Notes under the pieces: generated by a model
What the model was told of the DNA's origin: nothing
Databases searched by the model: none
The model's input: only the letters and a program-made list of their open reading frames with translations
DNA from: a virus
Virus record (IMG/VR): IMGVR_UViG_3300045988_092736
Span: 43,380-107,379 of that record
Length of the DNA: 64,000 nt
Strand: one strand, 5' to 3'
Program-made: the position numbers and the translations under genes
Part shown: piece by piece, positions 8,672 through 51,383 of the stretch
Numbering within the stretch: the stretch's first letter is position 1
Layout of the letters: the number at the start of each line of letters is the position of its first letter

Positions 8672-9682
8672 ATGAATATAAAAAAGACAGACATGGAAGA
8701 AAAGATTAATATAGCGGAAATTCTAAAGAATAAGCCGCAAGGAACAAAGTTGTATAATTGGTTATATAATACAAATGTAGAGTTAGATACAATCAGTACA
8801 ACGGATAAAGAAACAGCTATATGGTGTACAAAGCAAAAAGATATTAATACCACCATTTATTTTTCTTTTTCCAAATTAGGAACTATGAAAGGATGGCTTG
8901 ACGGCTTACAGATTCTCCTTCCTTCAAAAGAAATGCGTGACTGGCGCAAATTCGCTTGGAAGAAAGGCGATTTGCTTATCAATAGTAGTGGATTTCAGTG
9001 CATTTTCAAAGAATGGGATTCGGATGATTATACAAAGTTCAACGGATGCTATTCTAATAGCAGGGATGGTTACGAAGACGTATCAAATGCAGAAACAGCT
9101 AAGTTTGACAAGTTAGATAACAATATTGCCTATGGATATGTCAGAGAGATTGAAAGAAAATTAGGTGGCATACTAAACCTTGAAACTTTGGAGATTGAGA
9201 AGGCTCAGCCAGAGTTCAAGGATGGTGATATTGTTTGTATGATGGATAGATTTGATAATTATCGCTTTATATTTATTTATAGAAATGAAGATGATGAAAA
9301 TTTTTATTATCATGCGCATATAACAAGAAATGGTTTTGTAAATTTAGGCGAGAATGAATATCTTAGTAAACCTCGCAATTATTCAGTTCATTTAGCGACA
9401 GACTTAGAAAAGCAGCAGTTATTTGATGCTCTTGCAAAGAAGGGCAAGGCTTGGGATGCTGAGAAGAAAATGATTGTTGATTTGAAGAAAAAAGTCGAGC
9501 TTAAACCTTTTGATAAGGTTGTAGTAAGATGTAGCGAAGCAGATAGATGGTCTATAGATTTCTTTAGTTATAAAGCACCTAACGGATATATATGTGCAGG
9601 AGACGCTTGGTTTGGATATTGTCTTCCTTACAATGAGGAGACTGCAAAGTTAATAGGTACAACTAAAGATATGGAGGTTTAA
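8672..9682 (+). CDS. hypothetical protein, paralog of 50355..51383
   Basis: 'ILKNKPQGTKLYNW' matches 'ILKDKPQGTKLYSS'. C-termini 'PYNEETAKLIGTTKD' and 'PYNEETAHLLGTTDE'. Confidence 0.45.
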   Translation: MNIKKTDMEEKINIAEILKNKPQGTKLYNWLYNTNVELDTISTTDKETAIWCTKQKDINTTIYFSFSKLGTMKGWLDGLQILLPSKEMRDWRKFAWKKGDLLINSSGFQCIFKEWDSDDYTKFNGCYSNSRDGYEDVSNAETAKFDKLDNNIAYGYVREIERKLGGILNLETLEIEKAQPEFKDGDIVCMMDRFDNYRFIFIYRNEDDENFYYHAHITRNGFVNLGENEYLSKPRNYSVHLATDLEKQQLFDALAKKGKAWDAEKKMIVDLKKKVELKPFDKVVVRCSEADRWSIDFFSYKAPNGYICAGDAWFGYCLPYNEETAKLIGTTKDMEV

Positions 9683-13155: not shown

Positions 13156-13454
13156 GAAAAGATAAGGTAAAGAACTTAATACAATTGATTATGGAAAAGT
13201 TTAATGATGGCAATTATGTATTCGAGACAACAAACGAGTTTCCTGATGGCTATGAGATTTGGGCGATTGGTCGAAGAAATTTCGAGCACAAAGGCTACGT
13301 ACCATTGTGTGAGGTCGATGAGAACTACAACGTAAAAAGAGATACCTTGAAGGCTTTGAAAGTCAAGGATGAAGCATTAGCTTTGACTTTGCTCTATGAA
13401 GCCGTTAAACGAGGTGTTAATAAGAAAAAGTATAACAGAATGATTAATGCATAA
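13143..13454 (+). CDS. hypothetical protein
   Basis: Intact ORF. Confidence 0.35.
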   Translation: MGGVRKDKVKNLIQLIMEKFNDGNYVFETTNEFPDGYEIWAIGRRNFEHKGYVPLCEVDENYNVKRDTLKALKVKDEALALTLLYEAVKRGVNKKKYNRMINA

Positions 13455-13755
13455 GAAAATGGATGAGAATTTTCTGAATGTGCTCTATATCGAGCACACG
13501 GATAAAATAGGTGTTCTAAAGGACGATAAGGACGAAAGGGTATCAATTATCCTTGGGACGGACAAAACGCTTGTAGAACGCAAAAGAGAGGGTAAAACGT
13601 ACCTTCTTGTACCATTGACAAAGAACCACACCTTTGTCTGCAAGGGTAATTGCATTGATGTGGATGGTAAGCGTATCAAGAGTGAAATCTTCTTTCGTAA
13701 GGATGGTACGCAGTGGATTGAGATCGATAAAGAAACGTTATCTAAGGTAGCGTAA
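13447..13755 (+). CDS. hypothetical protein
   Basis: Intact ORF. Confidence 0.35.
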   Translation: MHKKMDENFLNVLYIEHTDKIGVLKDDKDERVSIILGTDKTLVERKREGKTYLLVPLTKNHTFVCKGNCIDVDGKRIKSEIFFRKDGTQWIEIDKETLSKVA

Positions 13756-15039: not shown

Positions 15040-15386
15040 ACGTTAAAAATTTGGTGGTTTGAAATAAATTTCGTACCTTTGCAACGAAATCCCAAGGTGG
15101 GAGGCGGTGGTGAGAACACCACCTCCCTGTTGGAAATCTAAGCTTTACAATTCAATTGTAAGAGCAACTTTGATTTTCCAAATCCGAATTGAAATATACA
15201 GTCTCATGCGGCTTTGGGATTTCATTTTACCTACTCTTTCAGGTTTTCGGCATCTCCTTTGCAATCTCTCATTGATTACACAGCAAAGATACGAAAAATA
15301 TTTGAAATATGCAAATTATTTCAAGATTATTTTTAGAAAACATGAAAATAAATTAGAGTTTCCTTGCATTTCTCGAAGGTTTTTGT

Positions 15387-25692: not shown

Positions 25693-25880
25693 TAGATTTA
25701 GGCACACGCTAAACTGCACCGGACTTTGGACATTAAATATTTAAGAGATATGGATAAGAATTATGGTGAAAGTTTTTGTTTTTCACAATATAGATAAGTG
25801 TTGTTAAACTGAGTGCTAATTTTTGGTAGAGTGGAATATAATAGCTATCTTTGTGGTCGAATTTCAAAACTTATAAGGAC

Positions 25881-30095: not shown

Positions 30096-30402
30096 GAGCT
30101 TGTTAGGTCTAGCAATCTTGCGAGTGAATGAAGTCGTACCAGATTTCGAAGACTTGGATAAGGTTCTTCCTTTGCTAGAACAAGCATATGATGAAGCGGA
30201 TAAGTCTGATTGGATTTCTGTAAAGGAGCGTTTGCCGGAGTTTGAAGAAGAAGTTCTTGTTACTAATGAAGAGAATAAGGAAATTTGGTTTTGTCATCGA
30301 AGTAATAACCCGTCGGTAATAACCGCAGAGTATAAGTTTTGTAATTACATGTTGATGCCAGTAACGCATTGGCAAGATATTAAAAAGTTGGATAATGGCT
30401 AA
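30076..30402 (+). CDS. DUF551-like phage protein
   Basis: 'DWISVKERLPEFEEEVLV' matches the W.SV...LP signature. Paralog at 54554. Confidence 0.5.
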   Translation: MDRKKIKSLLGLAILRVNEVVPDFEDLDKVLPLLEQAYDEADKSDWISVKERLPEFEEEVLVTNEENKEIWFCHRSNNPSVITAEYKFCNYMLMPVTHWQDIKKLDNG

Positions 30403-30928
30403 TAAACAGACGATAAAACCAAAGGTAGTTCCCTTTGAAATAGCCAAGCTTCTGAAGGAGGTCGGCTATGATGAGAAGATAGCCGAATTTTGGGCTTACG
30501 CCAGCCCTTGGACAGCAAAGGGTGGTGTTCGTAAGGGTGGAAAATATAGTGAGCATTATGGCAGTTATATTGCTTACTCCAATTCCGAGTGGGAGAAATC
30601 CAATATTGAGTTTTCTGCTGCCTTAAAGTTGAATAGTAAGCATCCGGCAATATCCGCTCCATGCTATGATATGGTGTTAGATTGGCTTTTAGAGCATTTC
30701 GGTTACTATATTTGTGTTGCAAACATTTCGAAATGTAAGTTTTGTTGGCAAACTACATCATGGTGTGTAGAGGAAGGCTTGTGTCATACGGATGGTAAGG
30801 AATATTCCAGTAGATACGAAGCAATGGATGCCGCTTTCAAGAGTATCTTAAAGGCTCGCATTGAGAATAAAGATAACGAGGTAATCAAAAGACTTTCGGA
30901 GGAAATACAAGATGGAAAGACTTTATGA
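30395..30928 (+). CDS. hypothetical protein
   Basis: Intact ORF. Confidence 0.4.
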   Translation: MANKQTIKPKVVPFEIAKLLKEVGYDEKIAEFWAYASPWTAKGGVRKGGKYSEHYGSYIAYSNSEWEKSNIEFSAALKLNSKHPAISAPCYDMVLDWLLEHFGYYICVANISKCKFCWQTTSWCVEEGLCHTDGKEYSSRYEAMDAAFKSILKARIENKDNEVIKRLSEEIQDGKTL

Positions 30929-31247
30929 TACTTTTGTACACGCAATAATGATGAAGTTAGAAGCTCGTTTATGTTCTGAACTCGAATGTGTTTATAAGAA
31001 TATAACAAACAAAATTGTTGAGAAGAAAGGTAAACTCACCAACGAAGACGTAATTGAGTTTCAGAAAAAACTACAGGAGGTGTACGACACGGATGCTGAT
31101 ATTCGTGAACAGATTATTGGTATTAAAGATTTCAAGAATTGCATCTTAACTAAAGAAGCATGTGAAGAGCTAATAAAGCGACTTAGCGTGATTAATATAA
31201 AAGAAAATGAACAAGCAAAGAATGATAGAGTGGATAGCCACTTGTGA
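30912..31247 (+). CDS. hypothetical protein
   Basis: Intact ORF. Confidence 0.35.
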   Translation: MERLYDTFVHAIMMKLEARLCSELECVYKNITNKIVEKKGKLTNEDVIEFQKKLQEVYDTDADIREQIIGIKDFKNCILTKEACEELIKRLSVINIKENEQAKNDRVDSHL

Positions 31248-31590
31248 TACAGGTGTCTCTTCAATGACTATGTGGAGTGCATTGATGGGGGTAAAACGAA
31301 AGAAAGATTTGAATATTCCCAAAGACAATAGTGACTTCCGTAGATGTTATGACATGGTAGAATACGGACACGTAACCTTGGATGAGCTACAAGCTGTGAA
31401 GGAGCAGTATCCTTGGTTTGCTCCTGTTGTTGACAATTGGAAGGAGTTGTCTCTTTTGTTTGAAGAAGAGCTGGACAAACGCTTGTATATGCGTATTCGT
31501 CAGCTATGTGAAGAGTCAGATGCTATCCGGTATGAGAAAAAGGGAGAACTTTATTATGAGAGGAATTTTTGGTATAATATAACACAATAA
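31207..31590 (+). CDS. hypothetical protein
   Basis: Intact ORF. Confidence 0.4.
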   Translation: MNKQRMIEWIATCDTGVSSMTMWSALMGVKRKKDLNIPKDNSDFRRCYDMVEYGHVTLDELQAVKEQYPWFAPVVDNWKELSLLFEEELDKRLYMRIRQLCEESDAIRYEKKGELYYERNFWYNITQ

Positions 31591-31601
31591 TCAAATTAAG
31601 A

Positions 31602-32426
31602 ATGAAGAAAATTATCTTAATGTTTTGTTTTGCGATACTCGGCATGAGTGCGCTTACAAGTTGTCATTCGGTTTCTCCCGATGCAGACGAAGAAGCCGTA
31701 ATCGTAAAGAAGCCTTGGTTTATTGGGCATGGAGGTGTTGAACAGCAAGCAGTGCAGACTGGTCTCACTTGGTGTTGGTGGTCAACGAGTGGTTATTACT
31801 TCAAGATTGTTCCAGTCCGTCATGAGATTACCTTAGATGATTTGTTTAGTGACGATAACACGCCACTTGACTTCCATACTGTAATCATTACTCAGATTGA
31901 GCAAGGCAAGTCCCCAATTCTTTTGCAGAATTATGGAGAGAAATGGTTTGATACTAATCTCAACAATTATTTCTGCAATCTGGTTCGAGACCATATTTCT
32001 CAGCATTCCCCATTTGACTTGATGTCGAATCGGCAAGTGCTTAATCAGATTGACACCAAGATACGCAAGCAGATGCAGGACTATGTGAATGCTCTATCAA
32101 AGAAAAAGCAGATGCCTATCATCATAAAGGAGGTTATCATTGGTAAAGCTACACCAAACAAGGAACAGCTTAATGAAATGAACCGCACGGCAAAGGTCGT
32201 GCAAGCCAAGCAGACACAAGAACGTGAATATGAAGTGCAGATAGCAAGAGAAAAGGCTGAGCGACAAAAGGCAAAGGCAGATAAGGCATATATGGAAGAA
32301 ATGAACCTTTCCGCTGGTCAGTTTATCAACCTTAAGTGGATTGAAACAGTAGCAAATAAGCAAGGAGCTAATATTGATGTTATGGTTGGCCCTGCTGAAA
32401 GCATGTGGAATATAAGACGCAATTAA
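31602..32426 (+). CDS. lipoprotein with SPFH/band-7-like domain
   Basis: Signal peptide plus lipobox 'ALTSC'. C-terminal coiled Ala/Lys/Glu region and 'NIDVMVGP', as in SPFH proteins. Confidence 0.4.
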   Translation: MKKIILMFCFAILGMSALTSCHSVSPDADEEAVIVKKPWFIGHGGVEQQAVQTGLTWCWWSTSGYYFKIVPVRHEITLDDLFSDDNTPLDFHTVIITQIEQGKSPILLQNYGEKWFDTNLNNYFCNLVRDHISQHSPFDLMSNRQVLNQIDTKIRKQMQDYVNALSKKKQMPIIIKEVIIGKATPNKEQLNEMNRTAKVVQAKQTQEREYEVQIAREKAERQKAKADKAYMEEMNLSAGQFINLKWIETVANKQGANIDVMVGPAESMWNIRRN

Positions 32427-32452
32427 TTAATTTATAAATCAAGTAAACAGAA

Positions 32453-32806
32453 ATGAATAAAGACAAATTAAAGGTCAGTTTTGAGATTGATCGTTACAAG
32501 GTGATTGGTATGCTCTCACGAAATTGTGAGAATGCTGAAGAGTACAATGAGATTATGGGTATTCTTGAAGGCAAGAGTGAGTTTGTGCGTGACGCGAATG
32601 GTAGCGAGGAACTTGCAAGCCGCATTTGCAATTATGCTTTAGACTCTATCTTGGTTGAGAATCCAGATTTGGCTCTCCGTAAGCGTTTGGATAAGGAACA
32701 GAAAGGCGAGGATGCTCCTGATGTTTCAAATGTTATCGAAATCAAAGGTGATGACGCAAAGAAACTTGTAGATACCCTTTGTGGTATTCTCCGCAAGGAT
32801 AAGTGA
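32453..32806 (+). CDS. hypothetical protein
   Basis: Intact ORF. Confidence 0.4.
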   Translation: MNKDKLKVSFEIDRYKVIGMLSRNCENAEEYNEIMGILEGKSEFVRDANGSEELASRICNYALDSILVENPDLALRKRLDKEQKGEDAPDVSNVIEIKGDDAKKLVDTLCGILRKDK

Positions 32807-32835
32807 TGTAAAATTCATCAAAAGAATATAAATAA

Positions 32836-32885
32836 ACACTAAAACACTTGCAAGTATAAGAAAAAATGCTTATCTTTGCATCGTG
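32836..32885 (+). promoter_or_regulatory. promoter family B (tRNA operon promoter), -7 TATCTTTG at 32871-32878
   Basis: 'cactaaaacacTTGcaagt...TATCTTTGca'. Related copy at 41509-41558. Confidence 0.5.
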
Positions 32886-33024
32886 TTTGAAACAGATGGC
32901 CTTCTGAGAGGTCGCTTCTACCATAATAAGTCAAGACTTAGGAGTTTACGGCATGGTTTTTGAAATTACCCAGCTCAGCTAGACTATAACAAGGAAACTC
33001 TAATTAGGGTGAGAATCCCTAGAT

Positions 33025-33097
33025 GCTGCATTAGACAAGTGGTTAAGTCGCCAGCTTTTCACGCTGGTATTCAAAGGTTCGAATCCTTTATGCAGTA
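33025..33097 (+). tRNA. tRNA-Glu: tRNA-Glu (anticodon TTC)
   Basis: Cloverleaf: acceptor GCTGCAT/ATGCAGT, anticodon stem CCAGC/GCTGG, loop TTTTCAC, T-arm AAAGG-TTCGAAT-CCTTT. Confidence 0.7.
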
Positions 33098-33103
33098 CTA
33101 AAT

Positions 33104-33174
33104 TGCCCTATGGTGTAATGGCAACACTACAGGTTTTGGTTCTGTCATTAGTGGTTCGAATCCACTTGGGGCAA
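33104..33174 (+). tRNA. tRNA-Gln: tRNA-Gln (anticodon TTG)
   Basis: Acceptor TGCCCTA/TGGGGCA (one G-U), D-stem GTGT/ACAC, anticodon stem ACAGG/TCTGT, loop TTTTGGT, T-arm AGTGG-TTCGAAT-CCACT. Confidence 0.7.
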
Positions 33175-33204
33175 CGAGGAGGAATAGGAGTATGTTCCAC
33201 AAAT

Positions 33205-33289
33205 GGTGCGATATTCAAGCGGTTAAAGAAGATTGACTGTAAATCAATTCCCATAGCGGGTTCGGTGAGTTCGAATCTCCCTTGCACCA
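33205..33289 (+). tRNA. tRNA-Tyr: tRNA-Tyr (anticodon GTA) with long variable arm
   Basis: Acceptor GGTGCGA/TTGCACC, anticodon stem ATTGA/TCAAT, loop CTGTAAA, about 15-nt variable arm, T-loop TTCGAAT. Confidence 0.65.
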
Positions 33290-33311
33290 CAAGTACTTTT
33301 GTCATATTACA

Positions 33312-33385
33312 AGGAATGTAGCTCAGTAGTAGAGCACTTGGCTATGCAACCAAGGGGGCGTTGGTGCAAATCCAACCATTCCTTT
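33312..33385 (+). tRNA. tRNA-Cys: tRNA-Cys-like (GCA) with an apparent 8-nt anticodon loop
   Basis: Acceptor AGGAATG/CATTCCT, U8A9, D-stem GCTC/GAGC, anticodon stem CTTGG/CCAAG enclosing CTATGCAA, T-arm GTTGG-TGCAAAT-CCAAC, discriminator U as in tRNA-Cys. Confidence 0.5.
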
Positions 33386-33387
33386 AC

Positions 33388-33459
33388 GCTTTCGTAGCTC
33401 AGTGGCAGAGCATAGGATTTTTAATCCTAGGGTCGAAGGTTCGAATCCTTCCGTTGGCA
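33388..33459 (+). tRNA. tRNA-Lys: tRNA-Lys (anticodon TTT), two U-U mismatches in the acceptor stem
   Basis: D-arm GCTC-AGTGGCA-GAGC, anticodon stem TAGGA/TCCTA, loop TTTTTAA, T-arm GAAGG-TTCGAAT-CCTTC, acceptor GCTTTCG/CGTTGGC. Confidence 0.55.
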
Positions 33460-33641
33460 CAATGATACACAAGAAGAGAGCCGTGATGTTTGTCCTATTG
33501 GAATCTCGGACATCTGTCAACGGGTAAACGTAGGAAGCAGATGGGACGAATAAAGTTGCGAATAAGTCTATGAACTAGGGAGACAAGCGGAATGGTTCTC
33601 TTTTGTGTTTCGTTTGATGGTTTTACGAAAATTAGAAGAAT

Positions 33642-33911
33642 ATGAAAAGTCCACTAAGAATGGCAGTCGCTTTAGAGAAGAATAATAAAGTATATCCGAA
33701 AGATGTACGGAAGTTCTTGATGGGATTGTATGCCACGTTACATTTGACAGATAATGCAACAGCAAAAGATATGGAGAAGTTGGTTTATTATGCTTTTCGG
33801 AATGGCTATCTGCTAGGTGTTAAGTCTGAAGGTGGTGATGACCAAAAAGCGTATGACAGACTGCCGGATTTGGGAGTAGAAGAAGATATTGGTGATGATT
33901 TAAGAAGATAG
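33642..33911 (+). CDS. hypothetical protein
   Basis: Intact ORF downstream of the tRNA cluster. Confidence 0.4.
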   Translation: MKSPLRMAVALEKNNKVYPKDVRKFLMGLYATLHLTDNATAKDMEKLVYYAFRNGYLLGVKSEGGDDQKAYDRLPDLGVEEDIGDDLRR

Positions 33912-42321: not shown

Positions 42322-43428
42322 ATGTATAAAAACGAGCACAAGTTCCCTTATAGATGGACTAAAAAAGATGCTAATTTTACAAAAGACAAAGGTAAGGTGA
42401 TGTCTTGCTTTTGTTGTGGAGGTGGAAGTTCCTTTGGTTACAAACTAGCTGGATACGATGTTGTAGCCTGTAATGAGATAGACCCAAAGGTTATGAAGAT
42501 GTACTTGAAAAATCACGATGTCAAGTACGCTTTCAATTGTGATATTCGTGAGTTGATTACCAATATCAATATGGGGGGGCATATTATGAAAGAAGAGTTG
42601 CATAATTTGGATATATTGGATGCTAGTTTCCCATGTTCTGTATTCAGTATTGCAGGTGACCGCCAAAAGGCTTGGGGAAAGGAAAAAGTATTCCGAGAAG
42701 GTCAGAAGGCGCAAAGGCTTGACGATTTGGCTTTCTACTCTATTGACCTTGCTAAAGAACTAAAGCCAAAGGTGGTGGTTTTTGAGAATGTCCAAGGTTT
42801 GTTGCAAGGTGAAGCTATCGAGTACGTGAAAGAGATTTACAAGCAGATGGATAATGCCGGATATATCTTGCAGCATTGGTTGCTTAATGCACGTAATATG
42901 GGTGTTCCTCAGAATCGACCTAGGGTGTTCTTTCTAGGATTACGCAAAGACCTTTGCGAGCCGTTTATGGTTCAGAAGGATTTGTTCGAGCGAGTGCCTA
43001 AGATAGATATGGACTTCAACGAGAAAGAAATTGTCTTGGATGAGTTCTCGGACTATAATGGAAGACAGATTCCTAAAGGAATGATGAAGTATTGGGAGTA
43101 TAGAAACGAAAAGGACAATTCTATCGGTGATATTGTCAAGCGGATGGATAATCGTCTTTCTATGTTCAATAATATGTTTCTTAAAAAGAACAAGGTATGC
43201 AATACCATATCAGCAATGGAAGATAGACTTGTGTATTATGATAATCCAAGTTATCTTTCAGCACATGATACGATTTTAGCATCAACATTTCCGATGGATT
43301 ATGACTTTAATGGCATGAAACCTTGGTTTGCTTGCGGAATGTGTGTTCCTCCTGTTATGATGGCTAATGTAGCTACAAGAATCTGGGATTGTTGGTTATC
43401 AAAGATTAAAAAGGAGGAATGCGCATGA
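42322..43428 (+). CDS. DNA (cytosine-5)-methyltransferase
   Basis: Motif I 'FCCGGGSSFG', motif IV 'FPCSVFSIAG' (PC), motif VI 'VVVFENVQGLL' (ENV). Confidence 0.8.
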   Translation: MYKNEHKFPYRWTKKDANFTKDKGKVMSCFCCGGGSSFGYKLAGYDVVACNEIDPKVMKMYLKNHDVKYAFNCDIRELITNINMGGHIMKEELHNLDILDASFPCSVFSIAGDRQKAWGKEKVFREGQKAQRLDDLAFYSIDLAKELKPKVVVFENVQGLLQGEAIEYVKEIYKQMDNAGYILQHWLLNARNMGVPQNRPRVFFLGLRKDLCEPFMVQKDLFERVPKIDMDFNEKEIVLDEFSDYNGRQIPKGMMKYWEYRNEKDNSIGDIVKRMDNRLSMFNNMFLKKNKVCNTISAMEDRLVYYDNPSYLSAHDTILASTFPMDYDFNGMKPWFACGMCVPPVMMANVATRIWDCWLSKIKKEECA

Positions 43429-44162
43429 TAACAGCAAGTATGACATCGGGAGAGATGCGTAGAGTACGAAACTTAGATGAAGCTAGAATCTATGAGTTTC
43501 AGATGCGAAAAGCTAATGAGCTTAAACGTGAAATGAGAAAGCAGAACGTAAGACAAATAACAAAGACCTTTGAGCTTGCTACACCTAATGCCGATTATTT
43601 CATCGTTGTAGGTGTAAAACATGGCGATGTATTTGCTTCCGGTTTGTTCATTTATCTGAAGGAAACCAACGAGTATATTCCTATGAGTAGAAACGAGGGG
43701 TATAGCGAAGATTGTTTTGCTATGAGCGTTCATTTTCTGAAGAGATTTGCAGAAAGGTTTTTGAAAAAAGACTTACCGATTCTCAAGATATTGCAAAAGA
43801 TATATACATCGTTTACAGGTGCTGTTCAGCTCTATAGTGATGACAAGACAAGAAGAGTGGTATTTGCTATTCCGGAAGGGCTTATACTCACAGAATACGA
43901 GCAAGAAAAGCATATCATCCATTACAAAACCTTTGTAAGCATGGATATGCTAAAGAAGACACAGAAGCGGAGTTATGAGAAGATAAGTGCATTTCTCATG
44001 GAGTCTTGTCAGCAAATAGCTAAAGCAAGAGACACCGGAAATGACGAAAGGCTGTGCGTTGTGTACAGAAGGTTTTACAATGATATTGATTTGCTAGATA
44101 CAAAGGAGGCGCAAACCATATATTCAAGTTTCTTTGAAAAAGGAGGTAACAATGAAAGATAA
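43419..44162 (+). CDS. hypothetical protein
   Basis: Intact ORF. Confidence 0.4.
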   Translation: MRMITASMTSGEMRRVRNLDEARIYEFQMRKANELKREMRKQNVRQITKTFELATPNADYFIVVGVKHGDVFASGLFIYLKETNEYIPMSRNEGYSEDCFAMSVHFLKRFAERFLKKDLPILKILQKIYTSFTGAVQLYSDDKTRRVVFAIPEGLILTEYEQEKHIIHYKTFVSMDMLKKTQKRSYEKISAFLMESCQQIAKARDTGNDERLCVVYRRFYNDIDLLDTKEAQTIYSSFFEKGGNNER

Positions 44163-44655
44163 ATGTATAACAAGGTTTCTTGGTGATATAAAGCCTATAA
44201 AGAATTACGAAAGGTATTATGTTAGCAAGCTGGGACATGTTTTTACTATTGGGAGAACGTCTCAATTAAAGGAAATCGTACCTTGCAAGACACCAAAAGG
44301 TTATCTGAAGGTATGGCTTTACAAGAACGGAAAGCGCAAGATGTTTTATATCCATCGTTTGGTAGCTCAGGCTTTCTTGAAGAATCCAGAAGCGTTGCCG
44401 ATGGTGAATCATAAGGATTTCGACAAGACGAATAACGATGTAGACAACTTGGAGTATTGCACCGCAAGATACAATGTGATTTATTCTGCTATAGCAAAGA
44501 AGACTTCATCTGTATACTTGGGCGTGACGTGGAATAAGAACAACAGAAAATGGCAAGCTCAGTACCAGATAGGTAAGAAGAAAATTTATATCGGATGCTT
44601 TGGGACGCAAGAAGAAGCTCACGAAGCTTATGTTAACGCTATTAAAGAGATTTGA
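44152..44655 (+). CDS. HNH-AP2 homing endonuclease
   Basis: HNH_3 'VNHKDFDKTNNDVDNLEYCTARYN' plus AP2 'YLGVTWNKNNRKWQAQYQIGKKKIYIGCFGTQEEAHEAYVNAI'. ATG at 44152. Confidence 0.7.
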   Translation: MKDKCITRFLGDIKPIKNYERYYVSKLGHVFTIGRTSQLKEIVPCKTPKGYLKVWLYKNGKRKMFYIHRLVAQAFLKNPEALPMVNHKDFDKTNNDVDNLEYCTARYNVIYSAIAKKTSSVYLGVTWNKNNRKWQAQYQIGKKKIYIGCFGTQEEAHEAYVNAIKEI

Positions 44656-44656
44656 T

Positions 44657-45370
44657 ATGCTAGAATTAAACAGAATATACAATTCCGACTGTATAGAAGG
44701 AATGAAGCAAATAGAGAGTGGGGAGGTGGATTTGATTGTTACTGACCCTCCGTATTGCATAGCCTACAAGACTGGGTGGAGAGCTGACGACCATCGTTTC
44801 TCTAAGGAAATACTCAATGATGATAATGAGCAATTGATTATTGATTATATGAGCGAATGCTACCGGATTTTAAAGGATGATAGTGCTGCTTATATTTTCT
44901 GTAGTGCCAAGACCTTAGACTTTTTTATGCAACAAGCGAGGAATGCAGGGTTTACCATTAAGAATGTGCTCATTTGGCGAAAGAACAACCATACGGCTGG
45001 AGATTTAGAGGCGCAATATGGTCAATGTTACGAGCCAATCCTGTACTTGAATAAAGGCAGACGAACCATAAACGGCAAGCGTTTGGAGGACGTATGGGAC
45101 TTTGATAGAGTTCCATCAGATAAATTGGTACATCAGAACGAGAAGCCAATCCCCTTGCTTATGCAATGCATCTTGAAATCATCGAACGAAGGAGATTTGG
45201 TGTTTGATGGCTTTATGGGCAGCGCAAGTACTGCTCTGGCTTGTATGCGGACAAATCGGAATTACCTTGGTTTTGAATTGGATGAGGATTATTTCAAGGT
45301 GGCACAAAGAAGAATTAAGGAAGAATTGTTTAATCAAAAAGATATGTTTGGATATGCTGGAGTTAAATAG
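44657..45370 (+). CDS. DNA methyltransferase, N6-adenine/N4-cytosine class
   Basis: 'DLIVTDPPY', then 'EKPIPLLMQCI' and 'GDLVFDGFMGSASTALAC'. Start 'MLELNRIY' at 44657. Confidence 0.8.
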   Translation: MLELNRIYNSDCIEGMKQIESGEVDLIVTDPPYCIAYKTGWRADDHRFSKEILNDDNEQLIIDYMSECYRILKDDSAAYIFCSAKTLDFFMQQARNAGFTIKNVLIWRKNNHTAGDLEAQYGQCYEPILYLNKGRRTINGKRLEDVWDFDRVPSDKLVHQNEKPIPLLMQCILKSSNEGDLVFDGFMGSASTALACMRTNRNYLGFELDEDYFKVAQRRIKEELFNQKDMFGYAGVK

Positions 45371-46070
45371 AATTTATCAAGGTGATTGTCGAAAGCTTTT
45401 AAAGCTGATTGATAGTGATAGCATAGACCTCGTATGTTCCGATGTGGCTTATCCGGTTCAGTCTAGGGGTGGCTCAGGGAGTATGGGAGGATATTGGACG
45501 GAATCTCAAACAAGAAAGGGCAAAATATTCAAGAGTAACGATATTGATATTTCGGACTACATCAATGATTTGTACCGGATATTAAAGGACAGGTCGCATT
45601 GCTATCTTATGTGTAATGATTATAATTTAATGCACTTTCTTGATGTGGTAGGAAAGAGTGAGTTCCATTTTACCAAATGCTTAATATGGGATAAGTGCGC
45701 AAAAATATGTGGCCGCTATTATATGGCACAGAAAGAGTATATCATCATGCTACGCAAAGGTGGTGATAGACCGATAAATGAATGTGGTACATCTGACATT
45801 CTGAGTGTTCCTATTCCAACCAACAAGCGCAAGGATAAGGATGGTTTGATTAATCAGACTGAAAAACCTGTAAAGTTGATGGAGATATTAATTAGAAACT
45901 CGACAAATGTTGGTGATGTTGTTCTAGACCCATTCATGGGGAGCGGTACAACGGCAAGAGCTTGCGTAAACCTTGAAAGAAAGTATATAGGCTTTGAAAT
46001 AGACCAGCGTCAAGTAGATTTTGCTAATAACGAATTAAAGAATATGAGTAGGCAGTTAAGTCTGTTTTGA
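45354..46070 (+). CDS. second tandem paralogous DNA methyltransferase (same class)
   Basis: Starts 'MLELNRIYQGDC'. 'TEKPVKLMEILI' and 'GDVVLDPFMGSGTTARAC'. Variant catalytic motif 'SDVAYP'. Confidence 0.75.
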   Translation: MLELNRIYQGDCRKLLKLIDSDSIDLVCSDVAYPVQSRGGSGSMGGYWTESQTRKGKIFKSNDIDISDYINDLYRILKDRSHCYLMCNDYNLMHFLDVVGKSEFHFTKCLIWDKCAKICGRYYMAQKEYIIMLRKGGDRPINECGTSDILSVPIPTNKRKDKDGLINQTEKPVKLMEILIRNSTNVGDVVLDPFMGSGTTARACVNLERKYIGFEIDQRQVDFANNELKNMSRQLSLF

Positions 46071-46074
46071 AACT

Positions 46075-46299
46075 ATGGATATGTGCAAGGTGTTTTGTTG
46101 CAATCCTGTTGTAAGAAATGGGAATAAAGAAACAACGGATGCTCTTATAAGAGCTATGAGAGACGAAGCCTTAAAACGAGGGTTGGTACGTGATGAATTG
46201 ATAGGTTTTTGCAACCGATTCTTGAGAGAAGGCGAAATCAAAGCTTGTATAGAGCATTTGCTAGATAATTTCAAACGTTATTTTTGGAGGTATCATTGA
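46075..46299 (+). CDS. hypothetical protein
   Basis: Intact ORF. Confidence 0.35.
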   Translation: MDMCKVFCCNPVVRNGNKETTDALIRAMRDEALKRGLVRDELIGFCNRFLREGEIKACIEHLLDNFKRYFWRYH

Positions 46300-46300
46300 T

Positions 46301-46930
46301 ATGAGAAGAAGAAAGTTGAACAAGTCTCCAGTGCTAGGCTTCTGCGGATTTGTTATCGGTTACGAGTGCAAGGAAAAGGAAATAAAGCTGATGGAGTGCG
46401 ATAAGGCGCAAGCAGATGCAATCATAGTTCCTCATCACTTTTCACACAAGGTAACGAAGAATAGTTGCTTGAATCTTTTGGTATTGTACAAAGGCAAGAT
46501 TAGGGGTGCAATGCAAATAGGGTATGGAATCCGACCGCACATCAAGACTGAAAAGGGCGAAGTGTTGGATTACCATCAAGTAAGGGAATTTGACAGAATG
46601 TGGTTGTCTGATGATATGCCAAAGTATAGCGAGACGATTTGTCTTTCTCTCTTGCACAAGTATATAAGGGCAACGCATAAGGAAATCAAATACCTTATAT
46701 CTTATGCCGATACGTCCATAGGTAACAAGGGAATAATATATAAAGCTGCAAACTATGAGCATATTGATACCATTAAGGCAGATTTCTATGTATTACCAAG
46801 TGGTGAGCGTGTGCATCCGGTAACTATGTGGCATCGGCACAAGACAAGAGCATGGGAGGTTCTAACGGAACTATACCCAGGAATAAAAAAGGCAGAAGGG
46901 TTTCAACTTAAATTTCTGAAGAAGTTATGA
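46301..46930 (+). CDS. hypothetical protein in the methyltransferase island
   Basis: 209-aa ORF with no motif I recognise, tightly linked to the methyltransferases. Confidence 0.4.
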   Translation: MRRRKLNKSPVLGFCGFVIGYECKEKEIKLMECDKAQADAIIVPHHFSHKVTKNSCLNLLVLYKGKIRGAMQIGYGIRPHIKTEKGEVLDYHQVREFDRMWLSDDMPKYSETICLSLLHKYIRATHKEIKYLISYADTSIGNKGIIYKAANYEHIDTIKADFYVLPSGERVHPVTMWHRHKTRAWEVLTELYPGIKKAEGFQLKFLKKL

Positions 46931-50095: not shown

Positions 50096-50379
50096 TGGTT
50101 ATGGGAACAAAAGTAGAAGTAAGAACTATTCCTTTGCATGGATTGTTTATTCATCGCAAGCAGGTTTGGCGGTCACTTGGTAAGCTTAGAGCTGAAAGCC
50201 ATTCTACGACAGCGCAAAAGGTGTTTATGAATGAGCATGATACCGAGGTATCAACTGAGAATGCTGATTTCATTGATGGCTTGAAAGTCACTCCTTATGA
50301 TGGTGAGCTGCCAAAAATATCAAAAAACGTTGGTAGTATGAGTTACTACCAGTATTGTTTAACGCAAAAATTGGTTTAG
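50095..50379 (+). CDS. hypothetical protein
   Basis: Intact ORF. Confidence 0.35.
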   Translation: MVMGTKVEVRTIPLHGLFIHRKQVWRSLGKLRAESHSTTAQKVFMNEHDTEVSTENADFIDGLKVTPYDGELPKISKNVGSMSYYQYCLTQKLV

Positions 50380-51383
50380 TTATGGAAACTGAGATTAATA
50401 TAGTGGAAATCCTAAAGGATAAGCCGCAAGGAACGAAGTTATATTCTTCCGCTTGTGGTAAATGCAGGTTAGAAGAAGTGGATGATAAAAGTTTCAAAAT
50501 ATCCTTCTATAATTCAAAGTTTGGTCTTATGAACGGTGGAGAAGGGTATCTTGATAAAAATGGCAAATTGTATGATGACGGAGAATGTGTTGTTTTTCCA
50601 TCAAAGGAAATGCGTGATTGGTCTAAGTTCGCTTGGAAGAAGGGAGACGTGCTGGTAAGTAATGATGGTGGCACAGAGGTTATCTTTGACAAATGGTACG
50701 ATGATACCTATACCAATTTCTATGGTAGGCATTACCTTAATAGTGAAGAAAAAAATAATGTTAAGTATAATGAAACTTTCCTTTGTACAACTGAAAGATA
50801 CGCTCTTGAAGATAAGAATGCTGCTAAGACTTACCTCAAAACCATTGAGGAACGTTTGGGTGGAAAACTTAATCTCGAAACTTGGGAAATAGAAAAGCCT
50901 AAGTTCAAGAATGGGGATATAGTAGCCCTTGTGGTACAAAAATGTACACATATTGCTATATTCCAATCGAGACAAGGAGCATATATAGGATTCCATGCAG
51001 TTCTTTGCCAGAATGATGAGCTTCTTCTAGAAGAACCATTCAGAGAAGATGTTGGAGATATTGAACTTCGCCTTGCTACGGACTCAGAGAAGCAGCAACT
51101 CTTTGATGCTCTAGCCAAAGAAGGCAAAGTTTGGGATGCTGAGAAGAAACAGATTGTGGATTTGTCAAAGAAGTGTGAGTTCAAGCCTATGGATTGGTGC
51201 TTGATGAGAGATATTCGTGGAGAAGAATGTTTTGCTTGGAGTCTCTGCCAGTTTGCATATCAACTTAAACGTGGAAAGTATGAAGCTGTAGGAGGTATGC
51301 GTTTTGATGAGTGCATCCCTTACAACGAGGAAACTGCACACCTTCTTGGCACAACTGATGAATGGAAAGGAGGTGAGGGATGA
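50355..51383 (+). CDS. hypothetical protein, paralog of 8672..9682
   Basis: See 8672. Confidence 0.45.
   Translation: MFNAKIGLVMETEINIVEILKDKPQGTKLYSSACGKCRLEEVDDKSFKISFYNSKFGLMNGGEGYLDKNGKLYDDGECVVFPSKEMRDWSKFAWKKGDVLVSNDGGTEVIFDKWYDDTYTNFYGRHYLNSEEKNNVKYNETFLCTTERYALEDKNAAKTYLKTIEERLGGKLNLETWEIEKPKFKNGDIVALVVQKCTHIAIFQSRQGAYIGFHAVLCQNDELLLEEPFREDVGDIELRLATDSEKQQLFDALAKEGKVWDAEKKQIVDLSKKCEFKPMDWCLMRDIRGEECFAWSLCQFAYQLKRGKYEAVGGMRFDECIPYNEETAHLLGTTDEWKGGEG

Follow-up and report, generated by a model that had tools for sequence, protein, structure and literature searches.

What kind of tRNA is encoded by a phage gene whose anticodon loop holds eight nucleotides (nt) instead of seven, and what could such a tRNA do? 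The question is raised by a gene at positions 33312 to 33384, on the plus strand, of a 64,000-nt stretch of viral DNA (positions 43,380 to 107,379 of IMG/VR record IMGVR_UViG_3300045988_092736), which was analysed at its full length and is referred to here as the window. Laboratory mutants and engineered quadruplet decoders account for most of the known frameshift-suppressor tRNAs with 8-nt loops, and natural 8-nt loops have been documented mostly from organelles. A first-pass annotation, made from the letters of the window, had read the gene as tRNA-Cys-like and had pointed to its likeness to frameshift-suppressor tRNAs. The likeness was upheld and the cysteine assignment was not: the orthologs in related gut phages are threonine tRNAs, the commonest allele among them has the anticodon loop of the +1 frameshift suppressor sufJ, and the window carries a variant of that loop with three clustered substitutions.

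The odd tRNA gene and its anticodon loop

The odd tRNA gene is 73 nt long (AGGAATGTAGCTCAGTAGTAGAGCACTTGGCTATGCAACCAAGGGGGCGTTGGTGCAAATCCAACCATTCCTT) and has no encoded CCA. ARAGORN, a check that the first-pass annotation had proposed, called a 'tRNA-???' at 33311-33385 with a 4-base anticodon, atgc. The Rfam tRNA model (RF00005), which has a gathering score of 29, matched the gene over its full length at 59.6 bits (E = 2.3e-10), and its alignment put a 1-nt insertion into the anticodon loop. With these two results, the gene was confirmed as a real phage tRNA with a true 8-nt loop enclosed by the 5-bp stem CTTGG/CCAAG, as had been claimed. The features of the gene are the following.

33312..33384, plus strand: tRNA gene of Thr-tRNA ancestry with an 8-nt anticodon loop (ARAGORN; Rfam, 59.6 bits; covarying cloverleaf)
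33337..33341, plus strand: 5' strand of the anticodon stem, CTTGG, tRNA positions 27-31 (pairs with 33350-33354)
33342..33349, plus strand: 8-nt anticodon loop CTATGCAA (ARAGORN, Rfam, sister alleles)
33344..33347, plus strand: four central loop bases, ATGC (33344, 33345 and 33347 are substitutions relative to the sufJ-like TGGT)
33350..33354, plus strand: 3' strand of the anticodon stem, CCAAG, positions 39-43 (pairs with 33337-33341; covariation in orthologs)
33384..33384, plus strand: discriminator U73 (invariant in all orthologs, including those with Thr anticodons)

In sufJ numbering the window loop reads C31.5 U32 A33 U34 G35 C36 A37 A38, and divided as 2+4+2 bases it reads CU-AUGC-AA.

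The cloverleaf was 99.1% paired over 16 distinct orthologs, compared with 58% or less in slid controls. Pairs 31:39 and 49:65 covaried, each being seen as G-C, G-U and A-U with changes on both sides, and pair 30:40 was G-C or G-U among the orthologs. Since pair 31:39 covaries, the 8-nt loop is real and not a sequencing error, and it is under selection to remain closed. The good cloverleaf that had been reported therefore stood for the stems, but not for the elbow, which was non-canonical: the D loop, AGUAGUA (33325-33331), has no GG, and the T loop, UGCAAAU (33365-33371), has G at the usual psi55 site. These elbow features were common to all orthologs. An unrelated phage tRNA-Asn (L030) had the same D-loop/T-loop elbow, and together these observations suggest a covarying 18:55 tertiary pair.

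No alternative fold with a 7-nt loop exists, and this possibility, which had been raised with the annotation, was discarded; opening of the G31-C39 pair would give a 10-nt loop. The minimum free energy fold of ViennaRNA was a non-cloverleaf formed through TTGG/CCAA motifs, which are nearly the same in the anticodon stem and the T stem, and was rejected as contradicted by the 31:39 covariation. As a separate observation, the window allele creates a palindrome, UGCA (33345-33348), which is identical, and so complementary, to UGCA in the T loop (33365-33368). The minimum free energy fold pairs these two motifs, and a loop-to-loop pairing between two tRNA copies would also be possible; the match between the motifs is probably a coincidence.

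Orthologs, sufJ and the window allele

Orthologs were sought with pattern scans in which the anticodon arm was left open, and came from 58 IMG/VR contigs, 30 metagenome contigs and one contig of a metagenome-assembled genome (MAG), some contigs being duplicated between collections. The approximately 90 orthologs were all at the same position, just upstream of tRNA-Lys, in gut phage loci 92-99% identical to the window. The loop was of 7 nt in 30 of them and of 8 nt in 59, the latter from more than 20 independent assemblies. The 8-nt loops result from an insertion between positions 31 and 32, and 51 of the 59 read CUUGGUAA. The anticodon arms were distributed as follows.

CTTGG-TTTGTAA-CCAAG: 25 sequences; Thr UGU, 7-nt loop
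CTTGG-TTCGTAA-CCAAG: 5 sequences; Thr CGU, 7-nt loop
CTTGG-ATTTGTAA-CTAAG: 1 sequence (L105); UGU and one inserted base
CTTGG-ATTGGTAA-CTAAG: 5 sequences; 8-nt loop
CTTGG-CTTGGTAA with 3' stem CCAAG, CTAAG or TCAAG: 15, 24 and 10 sequences, respectively; 8-nt loop
CTTGA-CTTGGTAA-TCAAG: 2 sequences; 8-nt loop, A31-U39
CTTGG-CTATGCAA-CCAAG: 2 sequences (window and L014); 8-nt loop
One-base deletion in the 3' anticodon stem: 1 sequence (L084)

The loop of L105, AUUUGUAA, is a stepwise intermediate with UGU and an inserted base, and the phage alleles form the series A31.5 with UGU, A31.5 with GGU and C31.5 with GGU. In L084 (an ERZ773178 contig) a 1-nt deletion in the 3' stem strand (CTTGGCTTGGTAACAAG) would give a 4-bp stem and a 9-nt loop, and this copy may be damaged or an assembly error.

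The 7-nt orthologs with Thr loops were found at the same position in genomes 93-96% identical. Homologs with a normal loop had been named as a possible sign of a sequencing error in the window; they exist, but are other alleles with other anticodons, not the same sequence minus one base. The U73 that had been taken as expected for Cys is present at 33384, but it was invariant in all orthologs. As the orthologs with Thr anticodons all have U73, this base is ancestral to the Thr-type body and is no evidence for Cys. Judging by these orthologs, the odd tRNA descends from a tRNA-Thr and not from a tRNA-Cys.

The threonyl-tRNA synthetase (ThrRS) of E. coli normally reads G35 and U36. G35 and U36 were present in 88 of the approximately 90 orthologs, whereas the window allele has G35 but C36. 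In the acceptor stem the pairs were A1-U72 (G1-U72 in some orthologs), G2-C71 and G3-C70; A1-U72 and G2-C71 differ from the rules of the E. coli ThrRS. The alanyl-tRNA synthetase needs G3:U70, which has no counterpart in the G3-C70 pair observed here. The body of the tRNA suggests Thr as its amino acid, though the ThrRS determinant U36 is lost; the tRNA of the window allele may instead be charged with Cys, by way of U73 and GCA, or may be uncharged.

The sufJ tRNA is a tRNA-Thr3(GGU) that has gained a C between C31 and U32, and it acts as a +1 frameshift suppressor in Salmonella (Fagan et al., PMC4238358). It decodes ACC-A/C/U with zero-frame pairing to ACC in the A site; on the ribosome, positions 33-37 superimpose on a normal loop, and C31.5 pairs with A38, so that the stem tilts, which was proposed as the cause of later +1 slippage (PMC4238358). 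The arm of E. coli tRNA-Thr(GGU) reads CACCC-TTGGTAA-GGGTG, and addition of C31.5 to its loop, UUGGUAA, gives the sufJ loop CUUGGUAA, as in the 51 phage sequences. The sister phages with this loop thus carry what is, by its bases, a natural sufJ-type tRNA. The C31.5 and GGU loop at the end of the phage series is also the one argued by the sufJ authors to bind the A site best (PMC4238358).

The phage gene shares with sufJ its Thr-tRNA origin, the base inserted between 31 and 32 (seen when TTTGTAA is compared with ATTTGTAA of L105) and the 8-nt loop. The anticodon GGU in the full sufJ loop was found in 51 sister sequences, whereas the window loop, CUAUGCAA, differs from it at 3 of 8 positions. 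The window allele retains C31.5, U32, G35, A37 and A38. It has A33, U34 and C36, so that the anticodon is UGC or AUGC instead of GGU; it would not read ACC, and U36 is lost. A further difference is that sufJ is a laboratory-selected mutant of a host gene, whereas the phage form is natural and is the majority state in a wild population. The analogy with frameshift suppressors drawn in the first-pass annotation is strongly supported for the anatomy; the function proposed with it is putative and gained no support from the analysis.

Two other systems were compared. The window loop has the C32 U33 and A37 A38 flanks of engineered quadruplet tRNAs (CU-NNNN-AA) around four variable bases, and replacement of a whole anticodon on a constant body is the experimental route to such tRNAs (PMC9094753). 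Those are engineered, whereas the window allele is natural, and no quadruplet site was found in the phage. The yeast mitochondrial tRNA-Thr1(UAG) is likewise a natural 8-nt loop tied to threonine identity, in which such a loop can serve ordinary triplet decoding (PMC3113583, PMC7609411). It is derived from a tRNA-His, is served by a dedicated ThrRS and gives CUN codons a new meaning as Thr, whereas the phage tRNA is phage-encoded and Thr-derived, and its anticodon varies between near-identical genomes. No description of phage tRNAs of this sort was found in the literature searched, the coverage of which is incomplete.

The window allele itself was present in 2 of approximately 91 sequences, the window and L014. 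A neighbour-joining tree built from 1.1 kb of flanking sequence, in which the anticodon arm was masked, placed these two sequences inside the CTTGGTAA/CCAAG clade, with L006, a carrier of CTTGGTAA, at zero distance from the window. Between the window, L006 and L014, the flanks differed by 0-0.09%. Over a block of 2,177 nt (31574-33750) the window and L006 had 4 differences. Of these, 3 lay within the central four bases of the loop and changed UGGU to AUGC (T to A at 33344, G to T at 33345 and T to C at 33347). The C at 33347 was seen in 0 of the 88 other sequences. L014 has the same allele and approximately 60 substitutions relative to the window 2-3 kb upstream (30388-31398); as these flanks diverged by recombination while the allele is common to both, the allele has persisted. 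Neither the window nor 4.3 Mb of related phage loci contained a gene-conversion donor for GGCTATGCAACC, and mutagenesis of the diversity-generating retroelement type was rejected by reasoning, the changes not being adenine-specific. The window allele is a rare and very recent derivative of the sufJ-like allele in which the CU...AA frame and the body are untouched.

The odd tRNA is the fourth gene of a cluster with the same order in all related loci.

33025..33460, plus strand: five-gene tRNA cluster (ARAGORN, Rfam)
33025-33097, plus strand: tRNA-Glu(UUC), first in the cluster
33104-33174, plus strand: tRNA-Gln(UUG), second in the cluster
33205-33289, plus strand: tRNA-Tyr(GUA), third in the cluster
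33388-33459, plus strand: tRNA-Lys(UUU), fifth in the cluster, after the odd tRNA

Polymorphism was assessed over 82 aligned clusters, a site being counted as polymorphic when the minor allele was present in at least 2 sequences.

Spacers: 66% of sites polymorphic
Four neighbouring tRNAs: 1-18% of sites polymorphic
Body of the odd tRNA: 14% of sites polymorphic
Loop of the odd tRNA: 50% of sites polymorphic
Loops of the other four tRNAs: 7% of sites polymorphic
Anticodons of the other four tRNAs: 0 of 12 sites polymorphic

In the loop of the odd tRNA, no variation was seen at the second base (U), G35, A37 and A38. This pattern of variation indicates that the odd tRNA needs the shape of a tRNA and a framed loop while its specificity bases turn over. 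In the neighbouring tRNA-Tyr, the anticodon was invariant among relatives and the anticodon stem (33233-33234 with 33246-33247) had two compensatory double substitutions, U-A to C-G and U-A to A-U.

Retargeting and its alternatives

The explanation we favour, by analogy with sufJ and with a probability of roughly 0.4, is that the window gene encodes a retargeted, expanded-loop tRNA of the sufJ type that would pair with GCA(U) and would be prone to +1 slippage. The sequences show a structurally intact phage tRNA that derives from a tRNA-Thr and has a base inserted between 31 and 32, at the same place as sufJ, and a window loop in which three of the four central bases of the majority sister loop are replaced. 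If the ribosome structures of sufJ are a guide, U34 G35 C36, stacked on A37-A38, would pair in frame with GCA or GCG; in an equivalent reading, the four central bases would match GCAU. The distorted anticodon arm would leave the ribosome prone to a +1 slip during or after translocation, and the change would have been selected for its new specificity.

This explanation is favoured over inactivation because the three hits are confined to specificity bases and the body is intact, while one hit anywhere would inactivate the tRNA. The constrained body (14% polymorphic sites, compared with 66% in the spacers) and the fixed U at the second position, G35, A37 and A38 were also counted in its favour. 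In E. coli, a tRNA whose anticodon was replaced by a quadruplet one can be functional and correctly charged by way of its other identity elements (DeBenedictis et al., PMC9094753).

Several results weigh against retargeting. The ThrRS identity base U36 is lost in the window allele, and the base 5' of the anticodon in the sufJ register is A33 and not the near-universal U33. The phage genes were searched for candidate +1 frameshift sites, as the first-pass annotation had proposed, and no +1 site and no split gene was found. The +1-related pairs of open reading frames (ORFs) in the window all have their own ATG and belong to separate families, and none of them needs a +1 shift. Approximately 160 further loci of about 20 kb were fetched, and approximately 300 related loci were compared for insertions and deletions (indels). 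The window represents only part of a genome; relatives covered most of it, though thinly at 16-24 kb and 50-64 kb. No window-specific frameshifting coding indel was found against these loci, the indels being intergenic or locally compensated, and the sole indel tracking the 7-nt or 8-nt state was that of the tRNA itself. No site with GCAN in the window and ACCN in relatives was found except for the tRNA itself (a pattern on the opposite strand) and scattered singletons, and the variants private to the window and the contig of L014 were the anticodon bases only. The window genes contain 333 GCA and 166 ACC codons, and no codon avoidance was found, the use of ACC being 23.3% in phages with 8-nt loops and 22.3% in those with 7-nt loops; with such codon use, efficient frameshifting would harm the phage itself. 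A dedicated programmed frameshift site is unsupported, and any frameshifting must be inefficient or incidental.

Individual candidates for recoding were rejected. A series at 43419-46070 that resembled a split gene consists of separate genes (an unassigned ORF, an HNH endonuclease and two methyltransferases), and a 4-nt insertion at 25699, present in all relatives, is intergenic, just after a stop codon. At 13446-13455, two ORFs of 103 and 102 amino acids overlap in +1 at AATGCATAAG; GCA, the last sense codon, is followed there by TAA (13449-13454), so that reading of GCAU would fuse both. At this GCA-TAA junction, relatives with the UGGU tRNA had the same GCATAA or GCAAAA, with no covariation.

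The strongest alternative, which we nevertheless regard as unlikely, is counter-defence. The cluster would replace host tRNAs destroyed by abortive-infection tRNases, or would act as a decoy for those enzymes; loop size, positions 31.5/32 and 34 and the stem pairs would have diversified in an arms race, with frameshift proneness as a tolerated side effect and the window allele as a further escape or decoy variant. The tRNAs encoded side by side here are Lys(UUU), Thr(UGU, in the ancestral state), Tyr(GUA), Glu(UUC) and Gln(UUG). The P2 OLD tRNase depletes Thr(UGU), one of its main targets, and phage Thr(UGU) tRNAs, as in T4 and Bas32, rescue infection (bioRxiv 10.64898/2026.07.10.737580). A T5 tRNA-Lys with substitutions in the anticodon stem-loop escapes PARIS (PMC11455837), and phage tRNAs generally have anticodon-loop changes at tRNase sites (PMC10264068). 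Phage tRNAs are known to take the place of host tRNAs cut by abortive-infection nucleases and to bear changes in the anticodon arm that prevent cleavage (PMC10264068, PMC11455837). As in these resistant tRNAs, changes here are concentrated in the anticodon arm, variation in the odd tRNA being highest in its loop (50%, compared with 7% in the other four loops) over a conserved body. Neither a frameshift site nor codon avoidance was found, which also fits counter-defence, and a second tRNA family of related phages, described below, has hypervariable 7- or 8-nt loops on an almost invariant body. On the other hand, a replacement tRNA must decode the depleted codons, whereas GGU cannot read ACA and the window allele has no Thr anticodon. 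The known resistant tRNAs keep a 7-nt loop and their anticodon, while here both loop length and anticodon change, and the escape changes reported in the studies cited do not include 8-nt loops. No tRNase of the host, probably a member of the Bacteroidota, is known to target tRNA-Thr. A decoy would explain why the anticodon has left UGU and Thr, but this is pure inference.

A recent loss-of-function allele, in which one multi-nucleotide mutation struck the anticodon of a dispensable tRNA and is neutral or mildly deleterious and transient, is distinctly less probable. The rarity of the allele (2 of approximately 91 sequences) fits such an origin, as do the loss of U36 and of U33 (in the sufJ register), both conserved in all other alleles, and the finding of no function-linked change elsewhere. 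Random inactivating hits would, however, fall anywhere in the 73 nt, whereas the three hits are exactly in the four specificity bases, with one other difference in the 2.2-kb block, and no damage is seen in the body, the stems or the CU..AA frame. The allele is present in two assemblies with flanks that have since recombined, so it persisted, and the 4.3 Mb of related phage DNA held no donor for a conversion tract.

The earlier assignment as a tRNA-Cys with anticodon GCA, U73 and extra loop bases is very improbable. U73 and GCA are the main identity elements of the cysteinyl-tRNA synthetase. The triple change makes UGCAA, which matches positions 33-37 of tRNA-Cys loops, that of E. coli being UUGCAAA, and anticodon switches on a constant body seem common in this phage group. 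None of the orthologs was a tRNA-Cys, however: those at the same position have the Thr anticodons UGU, CGU, (U)UGU and (U)GGU, U73 is inherited with the Thr body, and GCA was in the normal register of a 7-nt loop, at 34-36, in no ortholog. In the window, GCA does not fit the register whether counted from the 5' or from the 3' side of the loop. Placing it at 34-36 leaves four bases 5' and one base 3', so that the stack on the 3' side, which positions the anticodon, lacks one base; the loop would thus have gained two bases 5' and lost one 3', and not gained one extra nucleotide 5' of U33 as had been described.

A spurious extra base, for which only the prior suspicion of odd loop lengths speaks, is refuted as a sequencing or assembly artefact by the population data: 8-nt loops in 59 orthologs from more than 20 independent assemblies, the compensatory change at 31:39, and a window allele that differs by substitutions, not by an indel, and recurs in L014. 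An idea that the tRNA manipulates host T-boxes was dropped, as the likely host phylum, Bacteroidota, is not known to use them.

Genome context and implications

The window is part of a tailed-phage genome with approximately 38% G+C, dense ORFs with the standard genetic code and genes almost all on the plus strand. No tRNA-related functions were found among the neighbours of the odd tRNA gene, which encode an amidoligase, an SPFH protein, a DUF1653 protein and a Thy1-type (ThyX-type) thymidylate synthase. In addition to the thymidylate synthase, the window encodes a tape-measure protein of 2,324 amino acids, a major head protein, several DNA methyltransferases and a Mom-like protein. The sole close GenBank record was MT835576, a scaffold of a human faecal phage that carries no annotation. 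Among cultured phages, those with the nearest relatives of the head protein infect Cellulophaga, Riemerella and Porphyromonas, which makes a host in the Bacteroidota likely. The sole match in a genome collection, a 4.9-kb contig with the tRNA cluster in a Candidatus Saccharibacteria MAG (L315, CAZPFV010000057.1), was rejected as a prophage that would give the host; it is probably mis-binned phage DNA.

When all fetched loci were examined with ARAGORN, a second odd tRNA family was found in related gut phages (L156, 1807-1885; L166, 1934-2012; L272-L314, from IMG/VR). Its 79-nt body, GCGCAAGTAACTCAGTTGGTAGAGTA...CTTGCGCCCCA, was almost invariant over 45 copies (GCGCAAG...CTTGCGC-C-CCA), with an encoded CCA, C73 and a potential 6-bp anticodon stem, and the flanks of L156 and L166 were 91% identical. 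The 7-nt loops of this family were TTCATCC (12 copies) and TTCATCT (1), and its 8-nt loops were TTTATGAG (19), TTCTTCCC (10), TTCATGAG (2) and TTTCTCCC (1). Odd-sized, fast-changing anticodon loops on conserved bodies seem to be a feature of the phage group. Further tRNAs of one body, for which ARAGORN draws 6-nt loops (CACTAA/CATTAA), were present in L165 (4800-4874), L170 (3749-3823), L171 and L176. As these tRNAs contain CUA or UUA, they resemble amber or ochre suppressors, and they suggest that related phages recode stop codons or use some other kind of non-standard decoding.

Other features of the window were recorded. Paralogous genes at 8672-9682 and 50355-51383 encode proteins of 336 and 342 amino acids with a common DW(R/S)KFAWK motif and no PHROG match; this family has several divergent copies per genome in hundreds of related contigs, with 41-100% identity. 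An Rfam DUF805b RNA motif (39.6 bits; gathering score 35.6) was matched at 15228-15260 on the minus strand, within a stretch of approximately 700 nt (14.86-15.42 kb) without a convincing ORF. A dense DNA-modification block at 42322-46930 contains three DNA methyltransferase genes, an HNH endonuclease gene and the gene of the Mom-like protein, with successive +1 overlaps.

In these wild phages, the majority allele of a conserved and structurally constrained tRNA gene has the exact loop of sufJ, and one sub-lineage has swapped the specificity bases while all else was kept. That a human-gut phage lineage maintains a natural majority tRNA of the sufJ type, which can be retargeted by a swap of its central bases and would serve as a +1 or quadruplet tRNA for recoding or for manipulating host translation, is a wider proposal that we put forward as doubtful, with somewhat less confidence than we give to counter-defence. 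Natural quadruplet or +1 decoding would be the role of these tRNAs if they are charged and used, and they would then provide ready-made, evolution-tested scaffolds and a test of whether viruses exploit frame errors. If they are instead tRNase-evading or decoy tRNAs, the arms race between phages and hosts over tRNAs would extend to changes in loop size and anticodon.

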